From a virus, in IMG/VR virus record IMGVR_UViG_3300045971_000895, positions 64,001 through 128,000 of that record: DNA of 64,000 nucleotides; one strand, written 5' to 3'. How positions within the stretch are numbered: position 1 is the first letter of the stretch; every line of letters starts with the position of its first letter. A model generated the notes under the pieces. That model had not been told where the DNA came from. It did no database searches and saw only the letters and a list, made by a program, of their open reading frames with translations. A program made the translations under genes and the position numbers. Below, one piece after another: positions 1-21,180 of this stretch.

Positions 1-40
1 TCCAGACGGTGCCCCCGATGCTCACGAAGAGGTCCCTCTA

Positions 41-946
41 ATGTCGACCGTGAACATCCTGGTGACCTCGGACGGAACCTCTCCAACCCCCATCGCCGGC
101 GCCGTCGTTTCCATCGTGGACCCTGCCACGGGCCTGGCACTTGTCGCGCGAGCAACAACCAACTCCGCCGGCATCGCAGGCTTCGACATTCCGGACGGCG
201 TCTACGAGCTGCGCCTCTACAAGAGGGAAGTCATCTTCGGTGGGCCCGTGGCCATCACCGTTCTCGGCAACGGGGCCTACACGGTCACGGGGACCTTGCT
301 GACGCTTCCGGTGGCGACAGACCCACTGCTCTGTCGCTGCACGGGACGGCTCGTCGGCTTCTCCGGCCAGCCACTCTCCGGGGTCACTCTCGTCTTCACG
401 CAGCGGGGCGACACCGAGAACGCCCTTCCTCGAGTGTTCGCTTCCCAGCTCGTTGCGCAGTCCGACCTCATCGCGCACTCCAACGATGAGGGCTTCGTTA
501 CTCTCGACCTCATCCGGGGAGGGGAGTTCAAGGTTTCCTTCTCCGGAGAAGAGCTTATCTGGAACTTCACGGTTCCCACCCGCTCTTCCGCAAACCTCAT
601 CGATCTACTTCACCCTCAACCGGCGTCTCTGACGTGGGATCCTACTCTGGCACCGGCGAACGCCATCACGGTGCAGGTGGGGCAAACCATCACGGTCCCG
701 GTGTCCCTCGTACTCTCAAACTACGAGGTCCTCACCAACGGAGCGACCGAGCTATGGCTGGCGTACCTCAACTCAGACTCGACCATCGCCCCCGCGGTAA
801 TCGGGAGCGCAGGAGTGGAAGTGACCGGAGGGGCCGTCGGAACGGCGCAGATCTCCGCGTCTGCACGCCAGGGGTTCTACCCGCGAAGAGTGCCCGACCC
901 GCCGGCGCTGATCACGACTCCGCTGACCATCACCGTTACACCCTGA
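41..946 (+). CDS. virion structural protein, beta-sandwich (carboxypeptidase-regulatory/Ig-like) repeats
   Basis: 301-aa ORF with high GC3 and a weak AGAGG RBS. Repeated 'GxVxxAxVxIVDxxTG/SGVTLVF' beta-sandwich-like segments. Sits at the head of the + strand structural block. Confidence 0.45.
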   Translation: MSTVNILVTSDGTSPTPIAGAVVSIVDPATGLALVARATTNSAGIAGFDIPDGVYELRLYKREVIFGGPVAITVLGNGAYTVTGTLLTLPVATDPLLCRCTGRLVGFSGQPLSGVTLVFTQRGDTENALPRVFASQLVAQSDLIAHSNDEGFVTLDLIRGGEFKVSFSGEELIWNFTVPTRSSANLIDLLHPQPASLTWDPTLAPANAITVQVGQTITVPVSLVLSNYEVLTNGATELWLAYLNSDSTIAPAVIGSAGVEVTGGAVGTAQISASARQGFYPRRVPDPPALITTPLTITVTP

Positions 947-1026
947 CCAACTTCGTCTTCGGCCTCATCGAGCGGGGGAAGCTGTATCCCTCGACGGAGC
1001 GGCACGCCGGCATTCGGACCCTCTGG

Positions 1027-1332
1027 GTGAAGGTCGTCATCCGGGCGGTCTTCGATTGGGTCTCCTACCGAGACTCCTCGAAGCTCATGCAGCTCAAGCT
1101 GGCCGAGAGCGCCCAAGCCTGGCTCTTCAAGGAGAGCGAGGTCTTCAACAGCTTCGAGAACGTGTGCTTCTACCTCGACATGTCTCCCTCGAACATCCGC
1201 AACTGGGCCAAGGCGCTCTCTCGGGACCAGGTGCTGAAGATCGAGTTGGCTGACCGCGCGCCCTCCCCGAAGCAGATCTACGAAGCGCTCAACCTGAAGT
1301 ACCTCGCCGACGAAGAAGACCTCGACCTCTGA
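1027..1332 (+). CDS. small acidic protein, or C-terminal extension of 41..946 reached by a -1 frame change
   Basis: GC3 shows frame-1 coding from about 940. The first in-frame ATG/GTG/TTG is GTG at 1027. The acidic C-terminus reads ...ADEEDLDL. See the finding on the frame switch. Confidence 0.3.
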   Translation: MKVVIRAVFDWVSYRDSSKLMQLKLAESAQAWLFKESEVFNSFENVCFYLDMSPSNIRNWAKALSRDQVLKIELADRAPSPKQIYEALNLKYLADEEDLDL

Positions 1333-3482
1333 TGGCCCTCTTGACGGTACAGGAGCAGATCTCCACCCTCCTCCAACGGAATCTCGTTGAGGACAAGACT
1401 CGAGGCACGCCCTCGGTCCAGGTGGAGGCTGCCGCCGTCATGGATTCGGTGGCGCTGAACTTCGTGTTCAACCCGCGCACCGTCCTCTACTTTGCCCACC
1501 TCGCCAGGAACGCGCTGTTCAGGCTCGTCGACGTTGAGCGCCTTACGGCGCTGGCGCTGATGCAGACCGTCCGCGACCTCGGCAACCAGAGCTTCGCACT
1601 CCGGGAACTGAAGGCACTTGAGCGAGCCAAGACCTCCCTCCTCCAGATCGAGACGCAAGGACAGATCCTTTCCACTGAGGGCGCCTTCCAGGGCTTCGAC
1701 TCTGCTGCGAAAGAGTTCCTCGACAAGCAACTCTCGAAGAACGTTCGTCGTCAGGGGACGTCAAGCCTCGTACGCCCAAGCGTAGAAGCTGCCGCAACGC
1801 TCCCCTCAGAGTATGCGACGGTGACGGCGCTGCATTCTCAGGTAGCTGCGAGGCTCAAATACCTGATGCGTGGAGTGAGAGAGTTCTCGATCTCAAGCCT
1901 TGCCGGGACACTGGGCATCAACGCGGCCTTCAGAGTGCGGAAGGACGTCGAGAGCATCATCACTGACCTCGAGGCAGACCCTACGGCGGCCGGCTCCAGA
2001 GAATACGCTGTTCGGTTGAGCGCGGCGCGGACGGCTCTTCGATTGCTGGGAACGCCTCCAGGGATCTTCGACCCCAAGGTCAGCACCACGAAGAGCTTGC
2101 CTTATGGTTACTCTTTGTCGGGAGCTTCTGCTGCTTCGTCGTTTGAGCAGATCTCTTCCACGCCTGAGCCGTGGTCTGTCCCGTTCGGTACGGTGTTCCA
2201 GTATACGGTAGGCCCAGTGGCTGGGGTGTTCCCCATCTACTCCCTGACCTACGCGTTGGACTCTACGCCGTCGATGCGGAGCCCCGCCTCGCCGGGCTAT
2301 AACATCCCACCTCAGGGAGGGCTCTTCTTCGATATGGGGGGAGGTACGACCTTCCGAGTCGTTATCAACGACACAAGTTCTTGGTTCTTTAAGACTCCTG
2401 GAGATGTCGTAGCGGCAATCAACGCGCAAGCGTCCGCGTATGTGGTCGCTCGAGTGGTACCGCAGAACATTCCAGGTGCCATCATTCTCCTGGACAGTGT
2501 TGGAATCAGCTCCCTTACGATGTCCCCTTTCCGGTTGACCGATACCATCTCGGTGCCGCACTCCGGGTCTACGAGCGGTAGCCCTACTGTATGGACGAAC
2601 TCGGCCCGGACGCTCTTGGGGCTGCCAGAAGGATCCGACGATGGGGTCCGAACTGCGTCGGACATGGCGGCCTACTTGAATGGCTGTTTTGGTGTCTCCT
2701 TCTTCTCTTCGGAGAACGCGCACCTCGTGGCTCGCGTCCCGTTGGCGCCGGGCCAGACCGCGAGCATCGTTGCTCCCGGCATCTTCGCCAGCGTGCCACC
2801 GGCGCCGGCATACTCTGCGGAAGTCTCTCTCGTCGGAACCTACCTCGGTAAAGCGATAGCTCCGCCGGCACCTTCTTTGGTGAGTCGCGGGGATGTACTC
2901 ACAGCTTCTACTGGAACGTCGAAGGTCTCTTCTGCCACAGGAAGCACCGTGCTTCTCGAGGATGTCCTGCCCGTCTTCGAGGGCCCCATCGCCGTCGAGA
3001 GCGGGCTCGTCAAGATGTGGCAGTCCCTTCAGCTCGCGCTCGATGCCTTCTCCGGCGCATGGGCCAAGGGGGGAAGCGTGGATCGGATGGATTCAACCAT
3101 CGCGTCCCTCTACAGCTCCCCAACACCGGCGCGGCGGAACGACGCGATCAAGGCACTACAAGTTCTTGTAGATACTCTCGAGTCCTTGCAGACTGTCCTC
3201 TCAAGCAGCCCCCTCTCCTCGGATGTCTCGGCGGAGAGGGCAATCGCAGAGGGGATCATGTCCACGCTGACGGAGAGGAAGTTCGACAGAGCTCAGTCCT
3301 TCCTTCTCCAGGGAAGGTTCGTGGAGGTCTTCTCTCTCGATTGGCAGACTGCTTCCTTCTCTGGGGAGCTCTTGTCTTCCGCTACTGAGGTGGCTCAGAA
3401 CGACCTCACTTGGCCCCAAGGCAACAGTGAAGAGCAGTCGAATGTCCCCTACGCCACCGACGACTCTCTCGAGGTCCAGTGA
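1332..3482 (+). CDS. hypothetical virion structural protein (716 aa)
   Basis: Long ORF with GC3 bias. Its start overlaps the upstream stop (TGATG). Ser/Thr/Ala-rich, typical of structural proteins. Confidence 0.5.
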   Translation: MALLTVQEQISTLLQRNLVEDKTRGTPSVQVEAAAVMDSVALNFVFNPRTVLYFAHLARNALFRLVDVERLTALALMQTVRDLGNQSFALRELKALERAKTSLLQIETQGQILSTEGAFQGFDSAAKEFLDKQLSKNVRRQGTSSLVRPSVEAAATLPSEYATVTALHSQVAARLKYLMRGVREFSISSLAGTLGINAAFRVRKDVESIITDLEADPTAAGSREYAVRLSAARTALRLLGTPPGIFDPKVSTTKSLPYGYSLSGASAASSFEQISSTPEPWSVPFGTVFQYTVGPVAGVFPIYSLTYALDSTPSMRSPASPGYNIPPQGGLFFDMGGGTTFRVVINDTSSWFFKTPGDVVAAINAQASAYVVARVVPQNIPGAIILLDSVGISSLTMSPFRLTDTISVPHSGSTSGSPTVWTNSARTLLGLPEGSDDGVRTASDMAAYLNGCFGVSFFSSENAHLVARVPLAPGQTASIVAPGIFASVPPAPAYSAEVSLVGTYLGKAIAPPAPSLVSRGDVLTASTGTSKVSSATGSTVLLEDVLPVFEGPIAVESGLVKMWQSLQLALDAFSGAWAKGGSVDRMDSTIASLYSSPTPARRNDAIKALQVLVDTLESLQTVLSSSPLSSDVSAERAIAEGIMSTLTERKFDRAQSFLLQGRFVEVFSLDWQTASFSGELLSSATEVAQNDLTWPQGNSEEQSNVPYATDDSLEVQ

Positions 3483-3763
3483 GCAGCGCTACTGACAGAG
3501 ACGTCAGGGAGATTCTCCACTCGGCGTTTGCCTTCGTGCGCTCCGTAGAAGCCAATCGCGCCTCTGCCGCCATCACTCTCGACCACGTCATCCAGCAGCA
3601 GGTGAAGTTCTTGAAGTCCGGAGAGGCTCGTCCCATCGTCGACCCTATGGGGGCGCAGGGCGTTCGCATCTCTCGCTACGATGAGCTCAAGCAGCTCAAG
3701 GACCAGGTCGACAAGCTCGTCTCTGTGGCCAAGGAGTACTTCGGATCGGAGACCGCAGTATGA
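3479..3763 (+). CDS. hypothetical protein (94 aa)
   Basis: GTG start overlapping the upstream stop (GTGA), with GAGGT upstream. GC3 bias. Confidence 0.45.
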   Translation: MSSATDRDVREILHSAFAFVRSVEANRASAAITLDHVIQQQVKFLKSGEARPIVDPMGAQGVRISRYDELKQLKDQVDKLVSVAKEYFGSETAV

Positions 3764-4410: not shown

Positions 4411-7400
4411 ATGGCACAGGCCGAACTGAAGACCTTCGTAGAGGACCGCCTTCAGGCGCTGATCCCCGGCATCGACGTCTCGGCCGGATCTCCGGCGCAG
4501 ACGACCTTCGTCGATCCCCTGATGAGGTACTTGGGGACGGACCCCTTCGAGACGGACATCGACAAGTTCCTCTCGGACCGCTTCCGTCAGGAGTACCCCG
4601 ACATCTACGCCGGCGACCCGAGCGCCATTCGCGATCTCTTCGTGAAGCCGCTCATCACTTTCCTCGAGCCGCTCAAGCGGGAGATCCTGACCGTTCGCAG
4701 GAACCAGTCTCTGAAGGATCCAACGGTGCTCTCGGACGATGACGCCGATGCATTGGTGGCCAACTTCTACGACCAGCGTGCCCAAGGAGCCCTCGCCGGC
4801 GGGACCGTTCGAGCCTACTACTCCAACCCCGCCAACGTTCCCATCGAAGTCACCGTCCGCTTCGCCACGGCCGGCGGCCTCGGGTTCTTCCCGACTGCCT
4901 CCACATCCATCACCGCAGAAGAGATGGTGTTCAACCGGGACGGCGCTCTCTACTACGCTGACATCCCGGTGAAGGCCGAGAAGGAGGGCACGGCGTACAA
5001 CGTCGCCGCAGGATCCATCGTCAACGTCGATGGGCTCTTCGGGGTCGTGAAGGTTACGAACCTTCAAGTCTTCCAGAGCGGGGCCGACAAGATCTCTACG
5101 GACGCCTTCGTCTCTCAGTCCCGTGAGGCGCTGAACGAGAGGTCGCTGCTCAACCGCCGAGGCGCCGTTCCTCGCCTGCGTGACGCCTTCCCGGGCCAGC
5201 TTCGCGCCGTCCAGGTCATCGGCGCGCAAGACGCAGAGATGCAGCGGGACATCTTGGTGGGGCACACCAAGGGCCACACCTGGCTCACGGGAAGAGTCAC
5301 GCTCTACGAGAACATGGCCCTGGTGCAGGCGCGCACCGTGGACGACGGAGCAGAGTCAGCTCCGGTCGCGGGCGACACGCTCTACGTCTACCTCAACAAG
5401 ACTTCCTGGCCCTCTGGGATCTTGCAGAAGGACAGGTTCGTGGAGCTCACCATCGAGGAGACGGTACTCGATGGCATCGGCGGCTCTGGGGCATACCAGT
5501 GCAGCTTCTTGGTGAGGTGGTCTGGTTCCCTCCCGACGGGAATCACTACGCCCCTCTCTGCTGAGGGAGGTTGCGCAAGGAAGGGCACGATCTCCATCAC
5601 TTCGATCCCCGGCATCGGAGCGATCACCGTCGAGGCCCCGGACCGGACGGTGCACGTCTACGGGCACACCGACATCTATGTGCGGCCCTCCGCCGACGTA
5701 GTGGCGAAGTCGGTACTGTCTCCAGTCGTCGATGCCTCTCCGATCATGGAGTACACGACGCTGTCCACCGCGAACTCGGTGCCCACCAACTGGGTGATGG
5801 ATGCGGGGGAGGACGGGAACACCTTCAAGGACTTCGCGGTGGCGGGCGTCTTGCCTGGGGATGTTCTCTACATCGAGTCGGGTGACGCTGCTGGCACCTA
5901 CACCATCGCCGACATCACTGGATCCGGCCCCAGCTCGAGGCTCCTCCTCACCACCAACGTCGAGCGGACGGCAGACAAGGCGCGGTATCGAATCTCCCGC
6001 ACCGTAAAGGTCGATCTCTTCAGCCCCAAGATCCCGAAGCTCCCCTTCTCCGACTTGCCGGCCAACGATCTCACCACGCAGATCGGATCGCTGCTCTTCT
6101 CCTTCGCCACGAACACCGTCAACTACGGTGTTCGCGTTGGTGACACCGTTCGCATCACTTCTGGCCCGGATGTGGGGGACTTCAAGATCACCGGCTTCGA
6201 CAGCGTCCTCGGTGGTCGTGGTGTTCTGGTGGACCGTCGAGCTACCGCAACTGTCGCAGGACTCAAGTACGAGATCTTCACGCCGCTCGAGCCGGTGCAG
6301 AAGCCTCTCATCCGCATCAAGGAGGTCATGCTCCTCGACTCCTCGAAGAAGGCTACCGGAGTCACGGTGCCTCCTGCGCTTCCTGTGGCGGTTCGGTCTG
6401 TAAGCGACTTCACCTCGGCCAGCACCAAGGGGCGCAGTTACCAGAGTGGCGGGATCGTTCTCCCCAAGCTCGACACGATCTTCACCACGACGAATGTGGC
6501 CCTGGCCCCTTCTTCCATAGGTGACCGCAGGTACTCCACGGGAAGCGAGCCGCTCAACGGCGGGCACTACAAGACCTTCTGCACGGACAACACCGCATTC
6601 ACGATGACGGAGATGCTCATCCCCGCCTCCGCCTATGACTCGTGCTCGTGGTTCCTTGCCTTGGTCGAGGACATCGACGCCACGGAAGCCAAGCCCCCAG
6701 TGACCTTCGAGGTCGGTGGGGTACTCAACCTTCTGAGCGGGCCGAACAAGGGCGGGTACTTGATCAAGGAGGTCGTGAAGTTCCGTTACTACCCTCCGGC
6801 GCCTAACTACGTCCCGCACTGGCTCACCTTCGTTCGCATCCACGGGGAGTTCCCTTCGGACACCTTCCGTACCGTCATCGACTTCTTGGCGGCCAACCCG
6901 GTGAGCTTCCCCGGCATCCCGTTCCTGCGCGGTCTGGTCGATGGCAGCGCGGTGTTCGAGTTCCTGTTCCGAGACGTCTTCTGGAACCAGCTCCCAGACT
7001 GGATGAACGAGTCCATCGGCTTGCTGGGCGGTTCGCCTCCAGGCACGACAGCGGCTGCACTCGACACCCTCCTCACCACGGACTACGAGGTGGGCACCCC
7101 TGCCAAGGGAGTCCTTCGCTCCTACTTCCAGCAGCCAACCCTCTTCGAGCAAAGCACCGCAGAGTCCCCTACTCCTACGACCTACGACTTCAAGGCCGTC
7201 ACGGGAGACATCCTCTCCTACCGTCCCGACCCCTTCCGCTACGAAGAGCAGAACATCCTCCCGGCCCGGGAAGCCGCAGATGTCGATGTGTTCAGCTTCC
7301 CCAGAGACGTGCTGCCAGGCAACCCCTTGGCGGACAGCGGGACGACGGCGGCCTTCTCCCTCACGGACAAGCCCAGCGTCTTCTCTATGGGGGTTCGTCC

Positions 7401-8910
7401 GGGTGACCTGCTGGAGTTGTATGAAGAGAAGCCCTTCTTCGCCGTCAACGATTACTCCGACCTGGTGGGCGTCATCACGGAGGTCGACAGCCCGAAGGTG
7501 ACTCGTCCTGCATCGGCTCCGGCGTTTGATCCCTCGCTGGGCGGCTTGCTGTTCTCCATTGTGGACGGTCCGGATGCTGGCCTCTACCGCATCATCGACG
7601 TGCCGGATTCGTACACGTTGGTGCTCGACCGGCCGCTGACTACTTCGACTCCGGAGATTCTCGCCCACGCTTCGAGCGTCTCCTTCGGGTATGGGTTCGG
7701 GCCCGGCATGGGGGGCATGGAGGACCGTATCGGCGCGCCCGGGATCGATTTCTCCCAGCACATCAATCGCTACGTCTCTCTCTACTGCACACACGCGAGT
7801 ACGCATCGCGTGTACCTCGCAGGATCGTTCCGAATCAAGAGTGTCGTTTCCGGTAACGTCAACATGGCTGTGGTTGAACGTACCGCTTTCTTCCCGAGTC
7901 CCTTCGGAGCCGACTCCAGGGCCTGTGTTGTCGTCACTGACGCACCTGCGTCGGCCCCAGAGGCCCGGAGCGGTGCCCAGAGTGGGACGGGTACAGAGGT
8001 TGTTGGCGTCCGGCTGGCACGCTTCTACCAGGACCTGCCCACGCTTCGGACCATCGTCTCGATCGGGTCCGACATTCTCACTTCCACCGTCACCGTCGAT
8101 ACGGCCTTCGGAGCCGGCATCAACAACCCCTACCGCGTCTACCGGAAGGATGTTCGGCGGGTGGGTGCGATGGAGATGTCGGAGAAGAAGGAGAGTTCTC
8201 TCTACTACTTCGACACCGAGGTGATCTCCCTCTCCCCAAGCCTGGCGGCGAACATTCCTGCCAACTCCTACCTCGTGCCGAGGGAGGGGACCTTCGTCTC
8301 CAACGGCTACAAGCACATCGTCGACGACCGGACTCTGACCTATTCGACCAAGGAAGAAGGGAAGCTCGAGCTGCCGCTCCGCATCATCCCTCCCTTCAGC
8401 GCAGACAGGTTGGACAACGCGCTCTCGGTCCCAGGAGCTTCGCTCCAGATCACCTACGACATGTCGACAGTCGTGGAGAGCGTCCAAACCTTCATCGGCT
8501 CCGTCGAGGATCGAGTCACCGCGGCGAACATGCTCGCCAGGCACTTCCTCCCGTCCTACGCCTCTTACGATGCGACGTACCTCGGAGGATCATCTCCGGA
8601 CGTCATCGCGAAGGACATCATCTCCTACATCGAGAGCCTCCCTGTGGAGACTCCCCTCGACGTCTCGGTGGTGCAGGACCTCATCGCCAATCGGGGAGGG
8701 AACCTCCTGACCCCCTCGGCGGTCGTGACCATCATGCACGACTGGAGTCGGAGGATGTGGATGGAGATGTCGCAAAACGAGATTGGAGGAACGAGATCGG
8801 CGGTCCCTTACGATGGGTCCTCTCGAGTCACGTTCTTCGTCCCGGGAGCGGACATCTCACTGAAGACGACGGAGCCCTACGGGGAGCGCATCAAGCTCGT
8901 GAGGAAGTGA
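4411..8910 (+). CDS. giant virion/tail protein (1499 aa) with repeated ~45-aa GD-x-V-x-I...G-x-Y-x-I modules
   Basis: Long ORF with RBS GGGGTAA. Internal repeats, e.g. VLPGDVLYIESGDAAGTYTIADI, VRVGDTVRITSGPDVGDFKITGF, VRPGDLLELY, IVDGPDAGLYRIIDV. Confidence 0.55.
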   Translation: MAQAELKTFVEDRLQALIPGIDVSAGSPAQTTFVDPLMRYLGTDPFETDIDKFLSDRFRQEYPDIYAGDPSAIRDLFVKPLITFLEPLKREILTVRRNQSLKDPTVLSDDDADALVANFYDQRAQGALAGGTVRAYYSNPANVPIEVTVRFATAGGLGFFPTASTSITAEEMVFNRDGALYYADIPVKAEKEGTAYNVAAGSIVNVDGLFGVVKVTNLQVFQSGADKISTDAFVSQSREALNERSLLNRRGAVPRLRDAFPGQLRAVQVIGAQDAEMQRDILVGHTKGHTWLTGRVTLYENMALVQARTVDDGAESAPVAGDTLYVYLNKTSWPSGILQKDRFVELTIEETVLDGIGGSGAYQCSFLVRWSGSLPTGITTPLSAEGGCARKGTISITSIPGIGAITVEAPDRTVHVYGHTDIYVRPSADVVAKSVLSPVVDASPIMEYTTLSTANSVPTNWVMDAGEDGNTFKDFAVAGVLPGDVLYIESGDAAGTYTIADITGSGPSSRLLLTTNVERTADKARYRISRTVKVDLFSPKIPKLPFSDLPANDLTTQIGSLLFSFATNTVNYGVRVGDTVRITSGPDVGDFKITGFDSVLGGRGVLVDRRATATVAGLKYEIFTPLEPVQKPLIRIKEVMLLDSSKKATGVTVPPALPVAVRSVSDFTSASTKGRSYQSGGIVLPKLDTIFTTTNVALAPSSIGDRRYSTGSEPLNGGHYKTFCTDNTAFTMTEMLIPASAYDSCSWFLALVEDIDATEAKPPVTFEVGGVLNLLSGPNKGGYLIKEVVKFRYYPPAPNYVPHWLTFVRIHGEFPSDTFRTVIDFLAANPVSFPGIPFLRGLVDGSAVFEFLFRDVFWNQLPDWMNESIGLLGGSPPGTTAAALDTLLTTDYEVGTPAKGVLRSYFQQPTLFEQSTAESPTPTTYDFKAVTGDILSYRPDPFRYEEQNILPAREAADVDVFSFPRDVLPGNPLADSGTTAAFSLTDKPSVFSMGVRPGDLLELYEEKPFFAVNDYSDLVGVITEVDSPKVTRPASAPAFDPSLGGLLFSIVDGPDAGLYRIIDVPDSYTLVLDRPLTTSTPEILAHASSVSFGYGFGPGMGGMEDRIGAPGIDFSQHINRYVSLYCTHASTHRVYLAGSFRIKSVVSGNVNMAVVERTAFFPSPFGADSRACVVVTDAPASAPEARSGAQSGTGTEVVGVRLARFYQDLPTLRTIVSIGSDILTSTVTVDTAFGAGINNPYRVYRKDVRRVGAMEMSEKKESSLYYFDTEVISLSPSLAANIPANSYLVPREGTFVSNGYKHIVDDRTLTYSTKEEGKLELPLRIIPPFSADRLDNALSVPGASLQITYDMSTVVESVQTFIGSVEDRVTAANMLARHFLPSYASYDATYLGGSSPDVIAKDIISYIESLPVETPLDVSVVQDLIANRGGNLLTPSAVVTIMHDWSRRMWMEMSQNEIGGTRSAVPYDGSSRVTFFVPGADISLKTTEPYGERIKLVRK

Positions 8911-11527: not shown

Positions 11528-14500
11528 ATGGCGACCTTCAACTCAGGAGGATTCGGAACCATCTCGCCCTTGGTGGAGAGGCCGACAGCTGTCGTAGTCG
11601 GTACGCCTTCCGTGGCTGTGCTGGGAGGGACGGTGCGCCTTGATGGCTCGGGCAGCATCAACCCCACAGCCTCCGACCTTACCTACTCCTGGGCCATCGT
11701 TGCGTCCCCGATCGGCTCAAAGACTCCCTACGAGCCCTTCAGACAGATCACGGAAGATTGGGCCTCCGTCTGGTTCTCTCCGGACCTCGTGGGCGAGTAC
11801 ATCATCGAGCTCACCGTCACCTCTGGCAACTTCGAGAGCAAGGCGCAGGCGCGAGTCTCGGTGCGCGCCATCCTCGTCCCGGACGGCCGAGCCATCGTCC
11901 CGGACGGCAAGTTCATCTGGAGCTACCTGCGCGACGTGTGGCAGCAGGTGGAAGACCGGCAGATCTTCGAAACGCTCTGGTCGGCCCTCATTCAGATCTG
12001 CGGTGCCGAGCTCCTGAAGCTCTACCAGTTCGACTTCAACAAGAGCATCAGGGACATCCAGGAGAAGATGCAGCGTCGGTGGCTGGCCTATGAGCCGCGC
12101 CTCGAGCTCGACCCGGCCGGCATGACTGTCTTCCTTGGGAACGAAGAGGCGGGGCAGGGCGGCTCGACGCAGCTGCTGGGCAGGGAGGCAAAGGCCGTCA
12201 TCTTCTCTTCCAACGAGCTCATCGTCGTCGAGGGGTCTGTTCTCGCAGATGTCCCTCCCTTCCTCGACATCCTCTACAGCCGCTCCTCCTCGAACGTTGG
12301 GGAGTACCGAACCATGGGGACGAACGCCGGGGCGACCGGCTACCGGATCAACGGGAGCATCCCCTCCGCAGTCGCTGACCGCGTCCCAACGACCTCTTCG
12401 GTGTTCTCCCCGCAGTTCCCGTTCCAGTCGAGGACATGGGCGCTACAAGCTCCGCCCGATTCCCAGTACGCGCTGAAGATGTCGATCTACCCGCCAACGG
12501 TGGACCAGCTTTCCGACATCTACAGCATCGCCGGGGCCATCGGGGACGTTCGCGTTGGGGACGTGGCGTACATCGCGACAGGCGTCAACGTCGGCTTCTA
12601 CCGCATCACCGCCTCCACCGGCATCTTCATCGAAGTGGACCGCGCTCCTCCGAGCTCTTCCCAGCCCACAGACCAGGTGATCATCTTCCGGCCGGTGGGC
12701 ATCAAGTTCGCCCCTCTCCCAAGCGCCTTGTCGGCAAGCTTTACCGTACCGCAGCTCGTAGGTTCTTCAGCCATCGCCAGCCTCGCCAAGGGCCGGCTCG
12801 TCACGATCGGCGGTCGGGCCTACCCTGTCCTGCGGTCGATGCTCGACATCCGACAGCCCGTTCCAACGTTCATCGTCACGACGGACGATGCCGAGGTCGT
12901 TACTGGAAGGTCGAACCTGAACTGGAGAGTGCCACACACTCTCGTGTCTCCTTCTGTCGACTTCGAGGCGGAGGGGGTGACCTCTGGTGACCTTCTTCTC
13001 TTCGACGTCAGGTTGGGGGGTAGGGGCGGCGTCGCTCAGTTCTCTGCGCAAGTCATCGGTGTGCATGGGCGCCGACTCGCCTTCGTACTGACGACCGAGG
13101 TGCTGGCCGCAGGAGAGGGCTACACCGTCCCAGACTCCGTCATCGCAGACACGCTCAACGCCATGGGCGTCGGCACCGTTAAGGTCTCTCCCGTCGGGGC
13201 GGTGAGCTTCACTGGGGATGCGGCGAACCTGTATTCCTTCGTGAAGAGCGGCCTCTTCGCGCAGCAGTTCTGGAACACCGAGATCGACCTGTCGACGGGG
13301 TTTGTCACTCCGGTAGGCCGCGTCTTTGTCTCCCCGAGAGCCGTCATCAGGAACAGCAAGATCCCTGTGGACGATACCGTCCTTTCCATTCCCGTTCTCC
13401 AGGAGTGGGTGGCGCAGCCGACGCTCGTCGAGAAGAACGGCAAGGTCTACCAGAAGAAGGGTAACGCCGAGTTCGAACTTCCACGGCGTCCCGTGATGCT
13501 GGTGGAAGGGAACGACTACCTCACCGACGGCACCACAGCCTTCGATGACACCGTCCCGTTCCGTACAGGAACTTCGACGCTAGAGGTGGAGGGCGCCGGC
13601 TTCCTCTCTCGGCAGGTGGCGCCTGGGGATAGGGTGTCTATCCCCACCGCCATCAGCCTGAACTTGCCCTACATCGTCGTGGAGGTCGTGTCCGAGGACA
13701 AGCTCCTGCTCTCGACACCGATTCCGGAGCTGCTTGTTCCAGTGACTACGGAGAGAGTCGTCGTTACGCGCAGGTCTGGCGGCAAGTACCTTCGACTCCT
13801 CCCCGGCGGGTTCACCGCGGCGAAGCCGGCGCCGGACCGCTTCTGGGCCGAGGTCAGCTACTTCGACAACTCGGATGCCATCGAATCGAACTTCGGCATC
13901 ATGGTGGGGCTTCGGAAGGAGGACCTCGACAAGATCACGACTCGAGTCTCCTACCGTCAGGCAGTGGCCGGACTGATGTTCGCCTACACCCGAGGCTCCA
14001 CCATCGAGAAGGTACGGCTCGGCGCCCAGATCCTTCTCGGCCTTCCCTTCGCAGAGCACCGCGGTGTTGTCCGGTCGATGGAGAGCAACTACCGTACGGA
14101 CGCGTCTGGTGTGTCCGTCCTCGGGAGACTCCTCATCGAAGACGTGGACGATGCCGGCGTCCCTTCCGGCATTCAGCGCGTCTACACCTACCCCATCGAC
14201 CACCAGTCCTCAGACCTCTCAGGGGTCGAGGTCAATCCTGCGACTGGGGTCACCTATGCTGTCGACGATGTCGTCGAAGCCTTCGCCCCGCTCGCGAAGG
14301 GCGTTGGGGTCAGCGACTACTTGACCGACCCGCTCAAGGGTCAGGCTTCCGGTATCTCGCAGCTTCAGAAGTTCCACTCATTCAGGCTGCGAGCCAACGA
14401 CAACCTCTTCAACATCGAAGAGATCACTCTCGTCTCTTCCTTCCTCCGCCGCATCACTCCCTCCTACGTGGCCTTTGTCCTTTTGGAGGTGACGCAGCTC

Positions 14501-15805
14501 GGAGACGACGTTTCTATCTCGGACTCCATTGGAATGGTGCTCCGTCGTGGCGGCATCGCCGGACTTGTCGACGACGTTGGAACAGGTCTCGGCACTCCCT
14601 TCATGTTCGACCAGAGAGACTTCTCGGGCCACAGTCTGGTTCGTTGGGACGATGGTGTATTCAAGCTGCGACGCTCTGGGAAGGACGCCATCGTTGTAGA
14701 CGTCGACCAGGTGACTGGTACCGTCAACTTCTCGGGAGACATCGTCTCCACGGTCATGCCGGGCGAGCTCATCAAGGTCGGCGACTACGTCATCTTCTCC
14801 GGTGGCCCAAATGCTGGGACCTACCCCATTACGGTAGTGACTGAGGGCGTGGGGGTGACGATCGATACGACGGGGAAGGCGCTTACGCCGGGCATCGACC
14901 AACCCTTCATCGTCGCCAGGAAGGTGAGCGAGGTCATCCGTTCTGGCTTCTGCTGGCGCCTCCGGAACGTAGATGCCAGCGGAGTCATGGGGACGACGCG
15001 GTACGGGGCAATCACCGCAGACCCCCACGGCTTCGTCATCGACGCGGGAGATGTCATCACCGACATCTCGAGCTCCCCTACACGAACCGCATCGTTCTCC
15101 GAGACAGGAAACATCCTGGACGGGGTCATGCCGGGGGATTGGCTCTTCACTTGCGGGGGCCGGCTCCTCATCACAGACGTGCAGAACATGGTCGTGACCG
15201 TCATCGGAGAGACAGGATTCAGCCCAGAAGGGAACGTCCCCTACACCATCATTCGCCCCAGCCTGCTCCCCTCCCCCTCGGAGAGCTCGTGGTCCATTAT
15301 CTCGGACGGCTCCTCGTACTCTTGCAATGACGACCTTCGGTTGATGGCCGACCCGGGGGACTACCTCGAGATCGTGTCTCCTGCCGGCTTCGCGGAGATC
15401 TTCGTCGCCGACGCGGGGTGGAACAATTACCTTCCAGTCCTTCCGGCGAATACCTACACCGTCCGGCTGAAGAAGAAGAACCGTCCTCAGGGACCCCTTG
15501 GCTTCGACTTCATCCTGAACGGCAACATCAACGACCAAGTGGACATCTACCTTCGGTCCCCCAACCTCATTGACTCCGACGCTACTGGGACGATCACCAT
15601 CCCGGCACATGAAGCGCTCAGCATGGGCGCGCAGATCGGGGACTTCATTCGCCTCTACGACATCACCCAGATCGACAACGGTTACGGCCTCGGGGTCTAC
15701 CCAATCGCCTCTATCACTGCCAGCGGAGGGGATGATGTTGTTGTACTCTCTGGTGGGATGGTCGACGGTGGGACGACCGCTTGGTCCCTTCTCAGGAGAC
15801 GATGA
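11528..15805 (+). CDS. giant virion/tail protein (1425 aa) with the same GD-x-V-x-I...G-x-Y-x-I modules
   Basis: Long ORF. Motif instances: VRVGDVAYIATGVNVGFYRITAS, MPGELIKVGDYVIFSGGPNAGTYPITVV, ADPGDYLEIVSPAGFAEIFV, IGDFIRLYDITQIDNGYGLGVYPIASI. Confidence 0.55.
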   Translation: MATFNSGGFGTISPLVERPTAVVVGTPSVAVLGGTVRLDGSGSINPTASDLTYSWAIVASPIGSKTPYEPFRQITEDWASVWFSPDLVGEYIIELTVTSGNFESKAQARVSVRAILVPDGRAIVPDGKFIWSYLRDVWQQVEDRQIFETLWSALIQICGAELLKLYQFDFNKSIRDIQEKMQRRWLAYEPRLELDPAGMTVFLGNEEAGQGGSTQLLGREAKAVIFSSNELIVVEGSVLADVPPFLDILYSRSSSNVGEYRTMGTNAGATGYRINGSIPSAVADRVPTTSSVFSPQFPFQSRTWALQAPPDSQYALKMSIYPPTVDQLSDIYSIAGAIGDVRVGDVAYIATGVNVGFYRITASTGIFIEVDRAPPSSSQPTDQVIIFRPVGIKFAPLPSALSASFTVPQLVGSSAIASLAKGRLVTIGGRAYPVLRSMLDIRQPVPTFIVTTDDAEVVTGRSNLNWRVPHTLVSPSVDFEAEGVTSGDLLLFDVRLGGRGGVAQFSAQVIGVHGRRLAFVLTTEVLAAGEGYTVPDSVIADTLNAMGVGTVKVSPVGAVSFTGDAANLYSFVKSGLFAQQFWNTEIDLSTGFVTPVGRVFVSPRAVIRNSKIPVDDTVLSIPVLQEWVAQPTLVEKNGKVYQKKGNAEFELPRRPVMLVEGNDYLTDGTTAFDDTVPFRTGTSTLEVEGAGFLSRQVAPGDRVSIPTAISLNLPYIVVEVVSEDKLLLSTPIPELLVPVTTERVVVTRRSGGKYLRLLPGGFTAAKPAPDRFWAEVSYFDNSDAIESNFGIMVGLRKEDLDKITTRVSYRQAVAGLMFAYTRGSTIEKVRLGAQILLGLPFAEHRGVVRSMESNYRTDASGVSVLGRLLIEDVDDAGVPSGIQRVYTYPIDHQSSDLSGVEVNPATGVTYAVDDVVEAFAPLAKGVGVSDYLTDPLKGQASGISQLQKFHSFRLRANDNLFNIEEITLVSSFLRRITPSYVAFVLLEVTQLGDDVSISDSIGMVLRRGGIAGLVDDVGTGLGTPFMFDQRDFSGHSLVRWDDGVFKLRRSGKDAIVVDVDQVTGTVNFSGDIVSTVMPGELIKVGDYVIFSGGPNAGTYPITVVTEGVGVTIDTTGKALTPGIDQPFIVARKVSEVIRSGFCWRLRNVDASGVMGTTRYGAITADPHGFVIDAGDVITDISSSPTRTASFSETGNILDGVMPGDWLFTCGGRLLITDVQNMVVTVIGETGFSPEGNVPYTIIRPSLLPSPSESSWSIISDGSSYSCNDDLRLMADPGDYLEIVSPAGFAEIFVADAGWNNYLPVLPANTYTVRLKKKNRPQGPLGFDFILNGNINDQVDIYLRSPNLIDSDATGTITIPAHEALSMGAQIGDFIRLYDITQIDNGYGLGVYPIASITASGGDDVVVLSGGMVDGGTTAWSLLRRR

Positions 15806-16455: not shown

Positions 16456-19400
16456 ATGTCGATGGACTTCTACAGGCGGCCGCAGCTTGCCGGTACCGCT
16501 CTCCGATTCCCTGACTACCCGATGCTGCGGGGGTCTGTGCATCGCCACGACCCAGACGGTGTGTCGTCTGCGCCATACTTCCCTCTCGCGACGGGTGGGG
16601 ACCTCACGCTCCTGGTTGACGGCACGCCCTTCACTGTCACGCTGACGGCGAATCCCTCGGCGCAGACGGTCGTCACGGCCATCAATGCCGTGATCTCCAG
16701 CAAGGGCTACGCTTACGACGAAGGGGGCGTGGTGCACGTCCGAACCCTGTCGAGGGTCGGCAGCGTCGAGGTGACGGGCACCCCGAGCGTGGCTCTTGCC
16801 CTCGGATTCGACCTGAGGCTGGGAGCACTGCGTACCTACGCTGGTGATGTGGCAGGCGCTGGAGAGGGCAGGATCAACAACCTCTTCGGCGCAGTGATGC
16901 CCGTCCCCGGCGAGAGTCTCAACTCTGAGAGCTTCGTTCGCGCACTGGCTCGCCTCTCAGCGAACCTGGACGTCCTGCTGTCGGACGGGAACAGGACGAC
17001 CCCGCAGTTCGTGGAGTGGGGGACGGTCACCTCCATCGATGACACCTCCGGCAACTACTCTCTCGTTTCGATCACACCGAACGCTCCATACGTCGGGCTC
17101 GGCGTCTCCAATGGCCTGGGCTCCTTGCGTGCAGGGGTCACTCTCGTCAAGGCCGCGATCGCTCCCTTCTTCTACCTGACCGCCGCTTCGGGCTATTACC
17201 CGTCCCCACACCAGGCGGTCGGTGTGGTGAAGGCCGCGTTCTTGTCCGAGCTCACTGGGGCCGCTCCCTACGCCAATGCCACCTCCGCAGCCGGTCCCGG
17301 GAATGTCTTCGGGCTCAGCTTGGTGAAGGCAGGCCCCTACCAGATCGATGAGATCCTCGGTGGTCGAGTCGTCTACCGCTCCGGCGGTTTCGGCGCCGCG
17401 CGAGTGGGCGACTACGTAGAGATCCGTCCCGACGCCAACACCACGAAGCTCCCGTGGGCCAACAACGGCATTCGCTGGAAGGTGGAGGCCGTCATCGGGA
17501 ACGGGCTGAGCCTGGCTCCGCTGTCGAAGGCAGAGCTCACCGATGCGGGACTTTCCGGGGCCAATGAGGTCCAACCGATCGTCAGCCTCAACGGCACGCG
17601 AGGCAACACCGAGAACTTCGGCGGGCTCTACCTCTGGACGGGCCCCACCATCGACGCTCCAAAGCTCGTAGTCTCACCCCCGATGGCTCCCTCCGCCATT
17701 GGCACTGTGGTGTGGGCAGCCGTTCCCTCCTCCCCACGTTCCCGAGCGCACGGCGAGGGGATGAACAACCCTGCCTTGAACATCCTCGCGCAAGGGTTCC
17801 CCCACAACGATGTCATCGTCACCAAGGGGACGATGTCGCTCACCGTGGGCACTCTTACGGTCTCCGGGATGGTGATCCGGAAGAACGGGTTCCGTAACGA
17901 CGTGAGTTCGACGCTCACAGGGCTGGGCAGCTACACCGGCTACATCATCCTCACAACCTCTGGTGCCGCGACTCTTGCGACATCCGCCGGCACTTTGCTG
18001 CCCGGCACCGGCATCCCTATCGCCAAGGTGGTCAGCGGCGCCATCACGCACGACCTACGCATCGCCGGAGAAGTCACGGAGCATGTGACCGTGGGCGGGG
18101 CCTACGCGATGCTCCCCGACATCCAGACGGCGATCTACTACTGCGCGCTGCGCGCTGTCGACGTGACGGAGATCGTCGTCACCTACGACCAAGCGAGCCC
18201 AGTCGGTGGATGGGTTACCGCGGGGTATCCCATCATGATTCGGGGGGAGAACCCTTCAATCTCTCTGGCGAGGAACGGGAGCAGTCCGCTCCTCACCTCG
18301 TCCGACTCCCAGAAGGTCATCCTCAAGAACCTCACCCTCCCGGTCTCCGACCCCAAGGTTGGGGAGCTCTTCGTCTCTCCCAGCAGCACCATCTTCGCCG
18401 TCGACTGCTTCGACTCGATCACGGGTGATCTCGTCTCGATGGCAAACCTCTCCACCGGAGTCGGTGGAGAGGTGGCCATCTACGGCGGACAGGGGACGCT
18501 CAGCCTCTTCGGAGCGACCAGCACTCGCGTCGGAGATGGGTCCATCACCGTGTACCTCGGCACCAACGCCACTACGGTGAGCCTCGGAGGCGCGAGTACC
18601 TCGACGGTGGTCCTCGGCACCCTGGCGGTGACGTTGTCGATCTCCGGAGCAAGCATCACGGTCACGGGAAGCGCCCAAGCGTCGACGCTCATCGGCACCA
18701 CCAAGGTCTCCACTCCGGTGGTCGAGGGCTATGCGGGAACGCTTAGCCTCTTCGGGACAACCTCCACGACCGTGGGCACCGGGTCCGCCAACACGTACGT
18801 GGGAGTCTCCAACGTTGGTGTCTACCTTGGGACCAACGCCACCTTGGTGGCCATTGGCGCGGTGTCTACGACGGTTTCCGGAACCTTGGCAGTGACCCAG
18901 TCGATCTCTTCTTCCTCGGCCACGGTCACCAACGCCAACGGCACCGTGAGTCTCGTGGACGGAAGCGCAATCCTCACTAGGGGGTTGCGCGTCGGAGCCG
19001 CGGGAGCGGCCCCAGCTACAGGAGAGGCGATCCTCTCTGCGAAGCTCACGGTCCCCGTGATCGAGAGCGGCTACGTGCCGGCGCAGAGCGTGAGCGGAGT
19101 GGTCATCGCGTTCACTGTCGAGTCTTTCCAGATGAGCCTGACCGATGTCGCCAAGTTCCGGACGGGGGACACTGTCACTGACACCCTTAACGCAGATGAC
19201 CATGGCGTGATCACCGGTATCAACTACTCCACCGGCTGGGTGACGACCGATCCTGGAGGGCTGTGGACGTCTTGGGAGACGGGGCACACCCTCACGGCCA
19301 ACCAAGCCACGATTGGGGTCTCCCCGCTGACTCTCCGGGCCAACACGGTGGGGGACGGGCCCGTCCGCGTGGCACCAAAGGATGGTCCGAAGACTGACAC

Positions 19401-20826
19401 CTCTCCGCTCTTCCGTGTCGCCAATGATGTGGCCGCGAGCGTGCCCGTCATGGACGTCACCAAGGACGGATTCACCCTCTACGAAAACGGCTCCCAGTAC
19501 ACGTCCATGGAGCTCATCGAACGGATCTGGAGAAGGATCGCCAGGTACGGGACGGTTGGGTCGGCCGGCGTCCAGTACTTCTGGCGCGGCAACATCTCGG
19601 CTCAGGTCATGGGGGGCTGCCCCAACATCACCAAGCTGACGGCCACGAAGCAGGTCTGGGACACCACCCTCAAGGCGGGTGCTCTCCTGCTCACGTTGCA
19701 GCCTTCCTCGAACTCGGACAACCTCGAGGCGATGCGGCACGCCACGGTCGAGTGGTACACGATGGACCGGGCCTGGGACCGCAGCACGTACCCGACCCAG
19801 TACAAGGACACCGGAGGGACGAACGGCACGGTCAGTGCGGTGCTTCTCAAGTCCTTCCACTCGATCTCAGATCGGCTCTTCGCGTCGCTCACCTCATCGG
19901 ATGCGGTGAACGCAACCGGCATCACGGCAACCATGTGCCTCCCCACCATGGGAGCGGGCACCGTACCGGCTGCCCGCATCACCATCTACAACGCCTTCGG
20001 GGGCTCCAGCACCTACTGGTTCGTCACCACCACGACGGACTCGACGCTCTACATGATCCCGGGCGGCGCCGGCTTGCCGACGCCACTCCCTGACGTCTAC
20101 CTGACTCCTGCTGCGCAGACCGTCTGGCAGAACGACGGAGAGACCGCGTTCCTCTCCATCGTGGGAGGGACTGGTCCATTCACTCTCTCCACCCCCACAG
20201 GTGGTGCGAATGGCCACTGGATCACGTCCAGCCCGACGGCGAGCAGGTCGGTATCGTGGCAGCCGACTGCGGCGTCCTTCCCCTCCGGCGCTACCGTCCA
20301 GGTGACCGACGCCAACGGCAAGACGGCGACCGCGACCATCACCGTCAATGACACCGCCGCAGGCGCGGACCCAGTAACGGACTGCTGCCTCTGTGTGGTG
20401 CCAGGCACTCCAATCCTCCTGCCCGACAATCGGGTGGTGGCGGTCGAGACCCTCAAGGTGGGAGACCAGGTCTGGACCAAGCCAGACTCCGGAGTCGACG
20501 TCTGGGGATCCTTCCCGATCAAGGCTGTGAACATCAACAAGCTTCCCATCGTTCGAGTGGAGCTCGAGGACGGGCGCATCCTTCGCGTCACCCCGAGCCA
20601 TCGCTTCTTCTCGGGTGGTGGTTGGCTCATGGCCTACGACCTCGAGCCCGGAGAGATCCTCGATGGCTCGCAGCCTGGGGTGGTGAAGCAGATCGTGGAT
20701 GAGAAGGTCACCGCCGTGACCGTGTCCATCACCGTGGCGGGGGCCAGGACCTACGTGTCCGATGGGCTCCTCTCGCACAACATCTCGAACCCGCACTGCC
20801 CCGGCGGCCTCAACGCGGGCTGCTAA
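16456..20826 (+). CDS. tail fibre/receptor-binding-like giant protein (1456 aa) with C-terminal Hint (intein-like) autoprocessing domain
   Basis: RBS GGAGTGA. Ser/Thr/Gly/Val-rich beta-structure and an internal 81-aa tandem repeat. The C-terminus begins with Cys (DCCLCVVPGTPILLPDN..), has a TxxH block (RVTPSH), and ends ...VSDGLLSHN-ISNPHCPGGLNAGC. Confidence 0.6.
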   Translation: MSMDFYRRPQLAGTALRFPDYPMLRGSVHRHDPDGVSSAPYFPLATGGDLTLLVDGTPFTVTLTANPSAQTVVTAINAVISSKGYAYDEGGVVHVRTLSRVGSVEVTGTPSVALALGFDLRLGALRTYAGDVAGAGEGRINNLFGAVMPVPGESLNSESFVRALARLSANLDVLLSDGNRTTPQFVEWGTVTSIDDTSGNYSLVSITPNAPYVGLGVSNGLGSLRAGVTLVKAAIAPFFYLTAASGYYPSPHQAVGVVKAAFLSELTGAAPYANATSAAGPGNVFGLSLVKAGPYQIDEILGGRVVYRSGGFGAARVGDYVEIRPDANTTKLPWANNGIRWKVEAVIGNGLSLAPLSKAELTDAGLSGANEVQPIVSLNGTRGNTENFGGLYLWTGPTIDAPKLVVSPPMAPSAIGTVVWAAVPSSPRSRAHGEGMNNPALNILAQGFPHNDVIVTKGTMSLTVGTLTVSGMVIRKNGFRNDVSSTLTGLGSYTGYIILTTSGAATLATSAGTLLPGTGIPIAKVVSGAITHDLRIAGEVTEHVTVGGAYAMLPDIQTAIYYCALRAVDVTEIVVTYDQASPVGGWVTAGYPIMIRGENPSISLARNGSSPLLTSSDSQKVILKNLTLPVSDPKVGELFVSPSSTIFAVDCFDSITGDLVSMANLSTGVGGEVAIYGGQGTLSLFGATSTRVGDGSITVYLGTNATTVSLGGASTSTVVLGTLAVTLSISGASITVTGSAQASTLIGTTKVSTPVVEGYAGTLSLFGTTSTTVGTGSANTYVGVSNVGVYLGTNATLVAIGAVSTTVSGTLAVTQSISSSSATVTNANGTVSLVDGSAILTRGLRVGAAGAAPATGEAILSAKLTVPVIESGYVPAQSVSGVVIAFTVESFQMSLTDVAKFRTGDTVTDTLNADDHGVITGINYSTGWVTTDPGGLWTSWETGHTLTANQATIGVSPLTLRANTVGDGPVRVAPKDGPKTDTSPLFRVANDVAASVPVMDVTKDGFTLYENGSQYTSMELIERIWRRIARYGTVGSAGVQYFWRGNISAQVMGGCPNITKLTATKQVWDTTLKAGALLLTLQPSSNSDNLEAMRHATVEWYTMDRAWDRSTYPTQYKDTGGTNGTVSAVLLKSFHSISDRLFASLTSSDAVNATGITATMCLPTMGAGTVPAARITIYNAFGGSSTYWFVTTTTDSTLYMIPGGAGLPTPLPDVYLTPAAQTVWQNDGETAFLSIVGGTGPFTLSTPTGGANGHWITSSPTASRSVSWQPTAASFPSGATVQVTDANGKTATATITVNDTAAGADPVTDCCLCVVPGTPILLPDNRVVAVETLKVGDQVWTKPDSGVDVWGSFPIKAVNINKLPIVRVELEDGRILRVTPSHRFFSGGGWLMAYDLEPGEILDGSQPGVVKQIVDEKVTAVTVSITVAGARTYVSDGLLSHNISNPHCPGGLNAGC
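18493..18960 (+). repeat. in-frame tandem repeat (two ~81-aa units: GTLSLFG[AT]TST.VG.GS...YLGTNAT.V..G..ST.V.GTLAVT.SIS) within the fibre gene
   Basis: Unit 1 spans 18493-18735 and unit 2 starts at 18736 (offset 243 nt). Unit 2 carries a short insertion. Confidence 0.5.
20383..20826 (+). other. Hint/intein-like domain at the C-terminus of the fibre protein
   Basis: N-terminal Cys block, TxxH block, and a terminal HN followed by a short 14-aa tail. Confidence 0.5.
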
Positions 20827-20838
20827 TAAGGAGGAAGT

Positions 20839-21180
20839 ATGAAGGCCAAGGCGACGTACAAGCAGTTCCAGAAGGGCATCAAGCCCTACAAGCAGAGCAT
20901 TCGTGCCTTCTTGGGCTGGCTCTCCGGTCTGCTGCTCCAGATCATCCCGCAGGGCGGCTACGACGCGGCCATCACCTGGCCCTGGAAGAAGTGGGCCTTC
21001 ACCCTCGGGGTCGCCGCCATTCCCGGCTTCATGGGTCTCATGAAGGGTGGGGACACCAACCCCACCGACGAGGAGATGTTCGAGAAGGTGCGTGCCGTGA
21101 AGCTGGCCAAGAAGGCGGCCGCCGGCGTGGAGACCACCGGAGAGCTTCCTCTTCCTGCCCCCGTCTTGCCCAAGGACTGA
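20839..21180 (+). CDS. small membrane protein, holin-like (2 predicted TM helices)
   Basis: Strong RBS AAGGAGGA. Hydrophobic segments AFLGWLSGLLLQIIP and WAFTLGVAAIPGFMGLM. Charged C-terminus. Confidence 0.4.
   Translation: MKAKATYKQFQKGIKPYKQSIRAFLGWLSGLLLQIIPQGGYDAAITWPWKKWAFTLGVAAIPGFMGLMKGGDTNPTDEEMFEKVRAVKLAKKAAAGVETTGELPLPAPVLPKD

Follow-up and report, generated by a model that had tools for sequence, protein, structure and literature searches.

A CTG codon in a -4 nt stop/start overlap as the probable start of a small gene in the tail/baseplate region of an uncultured large phage

How is a small phage gene translated when its reading frame takes over directly at the stop codon of the preceding gene and no canonical start codon lies at that place? 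This question is raised by the junction around nucleotides 940 to 946 of the stretch analysed here, which we call the window: 64,000 nt of the IMG/VR virus record IMGVR_UViG_3300045971_000895 (positions 64,001 to 128,000 of the record), with a G+C content of 63%. The first 24 kb of the window are a plus-strand run of phage tail/baseplate genes, and the upstream gene of the junction is one of them. The run includes a Baseplate_J-like protein of 1499 aa and, further on, a Phage_base_V-like protein. The upstream protein has an N-terminal domain of the carboxypeptidase-regulatory/Ig-like type, for which the Pfam match (CarboxypepD_reg, E=2.2e-5) is weak and under the curated cutoff, and its C-terminus reads TITVTP directly before the stop. 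The features on which the argument turns are these.

41..946, plus strand: upstream gene in frame 2, 301 aa, ending at TGA 944-946 (from the ORF list)
943..1332, plus strand: small gene, 129 codons plus the stop TGA 1330-1332
943..946, plus strand: CTGA, the proposed CTG start of the small gene over the upstream TGA (-4 nt overlap)
946..1026, plus strand: 27 codons from the upstream stop to the first canonical start, apparently translated in frame 1 (synonymous changes, GC3 0.9)
967..969, plus strand: ATC, an alternative near-cognate restart codon 21 nt past the stop, with no Shine-Dalgarno (SD) motif
1027..1029, plus strand: GTG, the first canonical frame-1 start past the stop
1330..1334, plus strand: TGATG, -1 nt overlap of the small-gene stop with the ATG of the next gene
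1332..3482, plus strand: next gene, 716 aa

The small gene occupies the second place in a chain of five consecutive stop/start overlaps (TAATG 39-43, CTGA 943-946, TGATG 1330-1334, GTGA 3479-3482 and ATGA 3760-3763). Strong SD motifs (AAGGAGG, GGAGG and similar) are found on the stand-alone genes of the window, and no SD motif was found at its overlapped genes, CTG 943 included. No tRNA genes are encoded in the window, so it supplies no unusual initiator tRNA.

No stop interrupts frame 1 between 490 and the TGA at 1330-1332. Its GC3 was 0.90-0.97 in each 90-nt interval from 930-1019 through 1200-1289 and dropped toward the stop, and the GC3 of frame 2 went from 0.73-0.87 to about 0.6 across the junction. 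The preliminary description had read frame 2 as coding up to the TGA at 944-946 and frame 1 as coding right after it, and both the GC3 scan and the substitution analysis given below agree with that reading. A crude GC3 scan placed the coding onset in frame 1 at about 937, and the first canonical start is at 1027; this 90-nt gap between coding onset and start is the only case among the real genes of the window. Other large onset-to-start gaps in the window-wide scan proved to be antisense shadows and do not make a second case. The start-like codons of frame 1 are GTG 634, ATG 754 and GTG 1027, and its near-cognates are CTG 943, ATC 967, CTG 982 and ATT 1012. The earlier statement that frame 1 has no start between 634 and 1027 had missed the ATG at 754, and it holds for 946-1026, where no canonical start occurs. 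GTG 634 and ATG 754 both lie deep within the upstream gene, in an unconstrained out-of-frame overlap, and since frame 1 has no protein-level conservation before 943, ATG 754 is irrelevant here. In the part of the ORF that is under constraint, the conserved N-terminal region and the codons before it thus offer no canonical start. Reassignment of TGA was ruled out, because the conserved downstream frame differs from the frame of the TGA.

The closest relative, locus L016 (IMG/VR UViG_3300045747_000694, 153 kb), is 95% identical to the 129-aa product, and locus L001 (JGI 3300031746) shows 92% identity to the small protein. Between 943 and 1026 the window and L016 differ at 7 nucleotides, and all 7 changes are synonymous in frame 1; when the same changes were read in frames 2 and 3, 0/6 changed codons were synonymous, and random placement of 7 substitutions gave an all-synonymous outcome in 0/20,000 cases. 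The comparison with L001 over the same codons gave 7 synonymous and 3 non-synonymous codon changes in frame 1. For the 28 codons of frame 1 before 943, the counts were 1 synonymous and 4 non-synonymous against L016, and 1 and 16 against L001. In the upstream gene as a whole, the substitutions between the window and L016 number 28, 17 and 79 at the three codon positions. This analysis indicates that protein-level constraint in frame 1 begins at the upstream stop codon and that 946-1026 is, as judged from its substitutions, translated in frame 1. Given 7/7 synonymous changes as against 0/6 in the other frames, the 0/20,000 placements and a conserved motif upstream of V1027, the observation of a frame switch is far beyond chance, and the frame-1 peptide before 1027, which had been called protein-like on its appearance, is supported by the same synonymous changes and motif.

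The small protein was aligned with 14 homologues (E 1e-60 to 1e-22). All 14 share the block RYxGxRALWxKVIIRAVFDWVSYRDS, which begins about 9 codons before V1027 (at about 997). The AlphaFold (AF2) model of the protein has a pLDDT of 79 and is all-helical with an acidic C-terminal tail; its first 16 residues are of low confidence (pLDDT <50), and predicted helix 1 spans residues 18-42 of the 943-based protein, so that it starts 11 residues before V1027. Scans of Pfam and PHROG gave no family, and Foldseek against the PDB gave nothing significant, the XRE/HTH-like matches having E>1. The structural neighbours in BFVD are only uncharacterised Caudovirales proteins from uncultured phages. No match was found in cultured-phage GenBank records, searched by protein and by 12 kb of DNA, and no relative of the small protein was found among 185,579 bacterial and archaeal genomes.

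Related loci were collected from JGI, ENA, Logan and IMG/VR. The 27 loci correspond to about 22 distinct contigs, which come from uncultured large phages and reach up to 209 kb. Wherever the upstream part was assembled, the gene order is constant, with a protein of about 300 aa ending in TVTP, the small gene, and a gene of about 650-716 aa; the syntenic homologues of the upstream gene end in TVTP in all related loci. Of the roughly 22 loci, 16 provide the small gene with a separate ATG or GTG that lies at the upstream stop or within 8 nt of it. The junctions fall into the following states.

ATGA junction, seven loci: L006, L007, L012, L014, L018, L019, L020
GTGA junction, three loci: L009/L010, L013, L023/L024
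TGATG junction, two loci: L021, L027
Short spacer and then ATG or GTG, four loci: L004 (+3), L005 (+4), L022 (+8), L025 (+2)
CTGA junction: the window, L016 and L001/L003; also L015, where the last codon is AAC and not CCC
ATA-A junction: L017
CTA-G junction: L002

At every locus that has a stop/start overlap or lacks a canonical start, the small gene is read in the -1 frame with respect to the upstream gene; two short-spacer loci depart from this relation (L005, +1; L004, same frame). The distribution of states indicates that an ordinary -4 nt stop/start overlap is the ancestral and usual junction. The junction of the window keeps this NTGA geometry with a C in place of the A or G of the start, and the variable base is at the same time the wobble position of the last proline codon of the upstream gene, CCA giving ATG, CCG giving GTG and CCC giving CTG. 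CTG 943 is thus a one-base variant of ATG at the start position of the relatives, and it is kept in the close ones: it is common to the window, L016 and L001, even though the upstream genes of the window and L001 differ at 44% of third codon positions. These three loci have no canonical start position in common. The only nearby GTG of L001 corresponds to window position 994, where the window and L016 both have ACG. In a rough neighbour-joining tree of the small proteins (92 columns, indicative only), the non-canonical junctions fall at at least three separate positions, and L015 with its CTGA lies on a branch apart from the clade of the window. A canonical start has apparently been lost at least three times (CTGA in the clade of the window, CTGA in L015 and ATA-A in L017), and the N-terminal peptide is under selection each time. 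L002 belongs to the clade of the window and reads FVVGIIER right after the stop, where the window reads FVFGLIER, with 19/24 nt identical, and its first canonical start falls inside the conserved motif.

We consider it probable, from these comparisons, that the small gene encodes a separate 129-aa protein whose translation starts at the near-cognate CTG 943 by termination-reinitiation coupling. Ribosomes would end the 301-aa protein at TGA 944-946 and step two nucleotides back onto the CTG, which initiator tRNA would decode, so that restart would depend on termination of the upstream gene. The product would be a 129-aa protein beginning M-T-N-F-V-F-G-L-I-E-R, made in small amount, and the weak codon probably holds its output low relative to the upstream protein. 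CTG 943 is favoured because it sits where the NTGA of the relatives has ATG or GTG, because it is kept in the close relatives, and because these share no canonical start; the non-canonical initiator at 943, listed in the preliminary description as one of several options, is therefore the best supported of them. The two genes are co-directional, and their stop and start triplets share nucleotides as in other -4 nt coupled pairs, but the start triplet is non-canonical in the window, L016, L001, L015, L017 and L002. Folding of 900-990 against 200 shuffles gave z=+2.33, and the junction was less structured than 199/200 of the shuffles, which is as expected of an accessible restart site.

Two points temper this reading. 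CTG initiates poorly and is not preceded by an SD in the window, so that output could be very low unless reinitiation relaxes the choice of codon. In addition, CTGA could come partly from base composition, given the wobble C in a GC3-rich genome.

A separate product could also arise if ribosomes scanned on for about 20 nt after termination and restarted at another near-cognate, chiefly ATC 967 (CTG 982 is found in the window only). Terminated ribosomes have been documented to scan to the nearest start (PMC12548453), AUC belongs to the four near-cognates (bioRxiv 10.1101/063800), and the codon is kept as ATC in five loci, namely the window, L016, L001, L002 (as ATC ATC) and L015, while L017 has an ATC about 20 nt past its stop. 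Restart at ATC would also cover L002, which has no near-cognate at the overlap. However, ATC is the preferred isoleucine codon in a GC-rich genome and stands at a conserved isoleucine. The codons before it (F-V-x-G) are conserved between the clade of the window and L002 with synonymous changes (GGC/GGG, GTC/GTA), the codons ahead of it have G or C at the third position in 7/7 cases, and a start at 967 would leave the conserved FVxG peptide untranslated. The starts of the relatives, moreover, lie at the overlap and not 20 nt downstream. As for CTG 982, it is preceded by GGGGGAAG, and the called start of P0002 falls at that position, but the codon is CTC in L016 and TTC in L001. On balance, we regard a restart downstream of the overlap, the main alternative to CTG 943, as unlikely.

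L002 bears on the preferred CTG start in another way. Its CTA is not a near-cognate, yet the peptide is kept, so decoding of CTG does not explain every member of the clade. L002 may restart at its ATC ATC pair; otherwise the triplet would have to matter less for restart at the junction than it does for standard initiation. That restart after termination at this junction is largely independent of the identity of the start triplet seems to us rather improbable; if true, it would be natural evidence that SD-less -4 nt reinitiation tolerates, or is tuned by, non-AUG triplets, and the junction variants would be a ready-made test set.

A programmed -1 frameshift at the last upstream codons, which would fuse 129 residues onto the 301-aa protein, was suggested by the frame of the small gene, which is -1 to the upstream gene with no canonical start on hand, and L002 has a junction without even a near-cognate. 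A stop codon in the A site can also promote slippage in the P site. The scan of the last 150 nt of the upstream gene for X XXY YYZ heptamers, however, found none in the window, L016, L002, L015 or L017, which confirms the earlier remark that no classic slippery heptamer is visible, and after a -1 slip the last sense codon would re-pair poorly, and differently in each lineage (CCC to ACC, GTC to GGT, AAC to GAA, CCA to ACC). A stimulator is missing too: the 100 nt past the stop (947-1046) folded no better than shuffles (z=+0.77), the 900-990 segment was the loosely folded one described above, the consensus fold of the six non-canonical junctions reached -3.47 kcal/mol with a positive (unfavourable) covariation term, and an Rfam search found nothing. 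The downstream RNA structure raised in the preliminary description was thus looked for by folding, alignment and Rfam, and none stable or conserved was seen. In 16 relatives, moreover, the small gene has an ATG or GTG of its own in the corresponding place, and the start-less arrangement is not conserved across homologues, which argues against a fusion. Programmed -1 frameshifting is known in phage tail genes from the tail assembly chaperones of the lambda G/GT type, and the present locus resembles them in having a small -1-frame ORF after a tail-module gene with no obvious start. Unlike G/GT, it has no heptamer or stimulator, the shift would have to take place at the stop itself, the relatives have independent starts, and the pair is not the chaperones before the tape-measure gene. 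Taken together, a frameshift is very unlikely. As a side observation, L001 has a single heptamer, CCCAAAT, 76 nt before its stop, which is absent from the window and L016.

The true start might instead be GTG 1027, the first canonical start past the stop, with the 27 upstream codons as an untranslated remnant. Many relatives have ATG at the equivalent of 1027 (RALWMKV), and gene callers sometimes choose internal starts (P0003). The 7/7 synonymous changes against L016 upstream of 1027 are hard to reconcile with a remnant, no SD precedes the GTG, and a start there would lose the RYxGxRALW part of the invariant block and of predicted helix 1. GTG 1027 lies within the conserved LWxKVIIRA block and within that helix, and L001 has GTC in its place. 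The codon most likely specifies an internal valine, and its use as the true start is highly improbable.

Bypassing of the gene 60 type was considered as well, in which peptidyl-tRNA-Pro would leave CCC 941-943 and land 47 nt on, at CCC 988-990 in frame 1. Translational bypassing of T4 gene 60 is mentioned in PMC11194080, and the junction resembles it in that a sense codon is followed by the stop and an identical codon lies 47 nt downstream in the other frame. The take-off codon is adjoined by the stop, and take-off and landing codons match in the window and L016 (CCC...CCC) and in L002 (GTC...GTC), with a near-match in L001 (CCC...CCT). The supposed gap at 946-987 is nevertheless under coding selection, with 4 synonymous and 0 non-synonymous changes against L016 and a peptide conserved in L002, which differs from gene 60; a matching landing codon, and with it the whole arrangement, is absent in L015 and L017; and there is no take-off hairpin, the junction region being unusually unstructured. 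With ordinary starts in the relatives as well, bypassing appears extremely unlikely, and of the -1 shift or hop that the preliminary description had offered to explain a fused product, neither is supported.

A single-base assembly or sequencing indel near 940 that splits one 430-aa ORF, also put forward earlier, draws its sole support from the look of a frame switch without a start codon and can practically be dismissed, as the same stop position and -1 relation recur in about 22 independently assembled contigs from different samples, most of which have ATG or GTG there.

The preferred CTG start can be set beside known systems of coupling. Overlaps of -4 nt with NTGA are the commonest coupling geometry, and SD-less termination with restart nearby has been reported (PMC12548453, PMC6728339, PMC9955659); NTGA coupling is reviewed in PMC12548453 and was tested in PMC6728339, and the coat-lysis UAAUG of phage GA is a case of SD-less coupling (PMC9955659). 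The latter paper (PMC9955659) reports reading of a downstream gene independently of a start codon only with RRF inactivated. The junction of the window is like NTGA coupling in that both genes run in the same direction, two bases of the TGA are also part of the start triplet, no SD is present and the pair belongs to an overlap chain in a structural operon, and the homologous junctions of the relatives are canonical ATGA or GTGA. It is unlike NTGA coupling in that the start triplet would be CTG and not ATG, GTG or TTG. The coupling literature that we found treats spacing, SD and structure and does not discuss the identity of the start codon, and in our literature search no experiment turned up that examines near-cognate codons in pairs coupled by an overlap.

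Near-cognate starts themselves are known in bacteria. E. coli infC starts at AUU, and regulated near-cognate starts of its kind depend on an SD and on discrimination by IF3. In the window, the likeness lies in a triplet one base away from AUG at the place of the homologues' AUG or GUG, kept over substantial divergence; unlike infC, the junction has no SD, the codon lies inside a stop/start overlap, and its use is putative. In E. coli, the four near-cognates CUG, AUA, AUU and AUC, which include the overlap triplets of the window (CTG) and L017 (ATA), reach about 1-2% of the initiation at AUG, or about 0.02-3% according to the construct (Hecht et al., bioRxiv 10.1101/063800). Among phages, ORF10 of Bacteroides phage phiB124-14 has been annotated with a CTG start (PMC3338817). 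What the window most likely presents is an unusual use of a start codon within an ordinary coupled pair, a new instance of a near-cognate start in an overlap and no new mechanism. The CTGA overlap may be a simple means to keep the small protein scarce relative to its upstream partner.

The locus matters mainly for annotation and as a natural case in which to test how strict termination-reinitiation is about the start codon. The conserved CTG in CTGA, together with ATA and CTA in sister lineages, makes a natural series on this question. The junction may also be mistaken for recoding. Standard gene callers trim 17-28 residues from the small protein, and the false starts that they call differ by relative: P0001 is started at the equivalent of 994, P0003 at 1012 and the window at 1027. 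The truncated N-terminus of P0014 is an artefact of the contig end.

Public gene calls of the small protein disagree on its start: in three close relatives, each call uses a GTG codon that is not homologous to the other two (at window-equivalent positions 994 for the homolog P0001, 1012 for the homolog P0003, and 1027 for the window itself), and all three calls cut off its conserved N-terminus. The differing start calls are a systematic annotation error, which arises from the probable non-canonical start. At the homologous junction of L002, a locus from another uncultured large phage (L002:3921-4003, Logan SRR11674002_16412), we found GTC-TAG with CTA in the frame of the small gene, and the overlap there lacks a near-cognate start; the peptide directly after the stop was kept in common with the window despite this, and the first canonical GTG of L002 falls within the conserved motif.

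The last 28 codons of the 301-aa protein (window 859-942) were highly variable compared with the close relative L001, with 3 synonymous and 13 non-synonymous codon changes, and only the terminal ...TITVTP was an exception to this variable end. The small gene, which follows directly, was strongly conserved. RNA around the stop/start junction (window 900-990) was predicted to be unusually unstructured, with a minimum free energy of -17.5 kcal/mol, whereas shuffled sequences averaged -24.7 kcal/mol (z=+2.33). The tail/baseplate operon of the window has five stop/start overlaps in a row:

Window 39-43, TAATG
Window 943-946, CTGA
Window 1330-1334, TGATG
Window 3479-3482, GTGA
Window 3760-3763, ATGA

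None of these five overlaps in the window had a good Shine-Dalgarno motif; strong motifs were found at stand-alone genes elsewhere in the window, for example at 20839, 25046, 27462 and 45902.

The window also contains four very large ORFs, and the Pfam search covered the 1499-, 1425- and 1456-aa ORFs:

Window 4411-8910, 1499 aa, marginal Pfam match to Baseplate_J
Window 11528-15805, 1425 aa, no Pfam match at E<=0.001
Window 16456-20826, 1456 aa, no Pfam match at E<=0.001
Window 54313-60624, 2103 aa, start codon TTG

One homologous contig, L025 (ENA ERZ27299977 k141_934912), carries GTCGGCAGCGTCAGATGTGTATAAGAGACAG at its very start (L025:1-31), which resembles a Nextera transposase adapter and suggests that the assembly contains untrimmed adapter. 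The window begins too late to cover the genes upstream of the 301-aa gene, and these were read in close relatives. In L001 (L001:1-3048, JGI Ga0315293_10001193), the genes immediately upstream are those for a glycosyltransferase, a B12-binding radical SAM enzyme and an uncharacterized 393-aa protein, and the contig of P0002, another homolog of the small protein, showed the same upstream gene order. Such neighbors in close relatives are unusual for a phage tail module.
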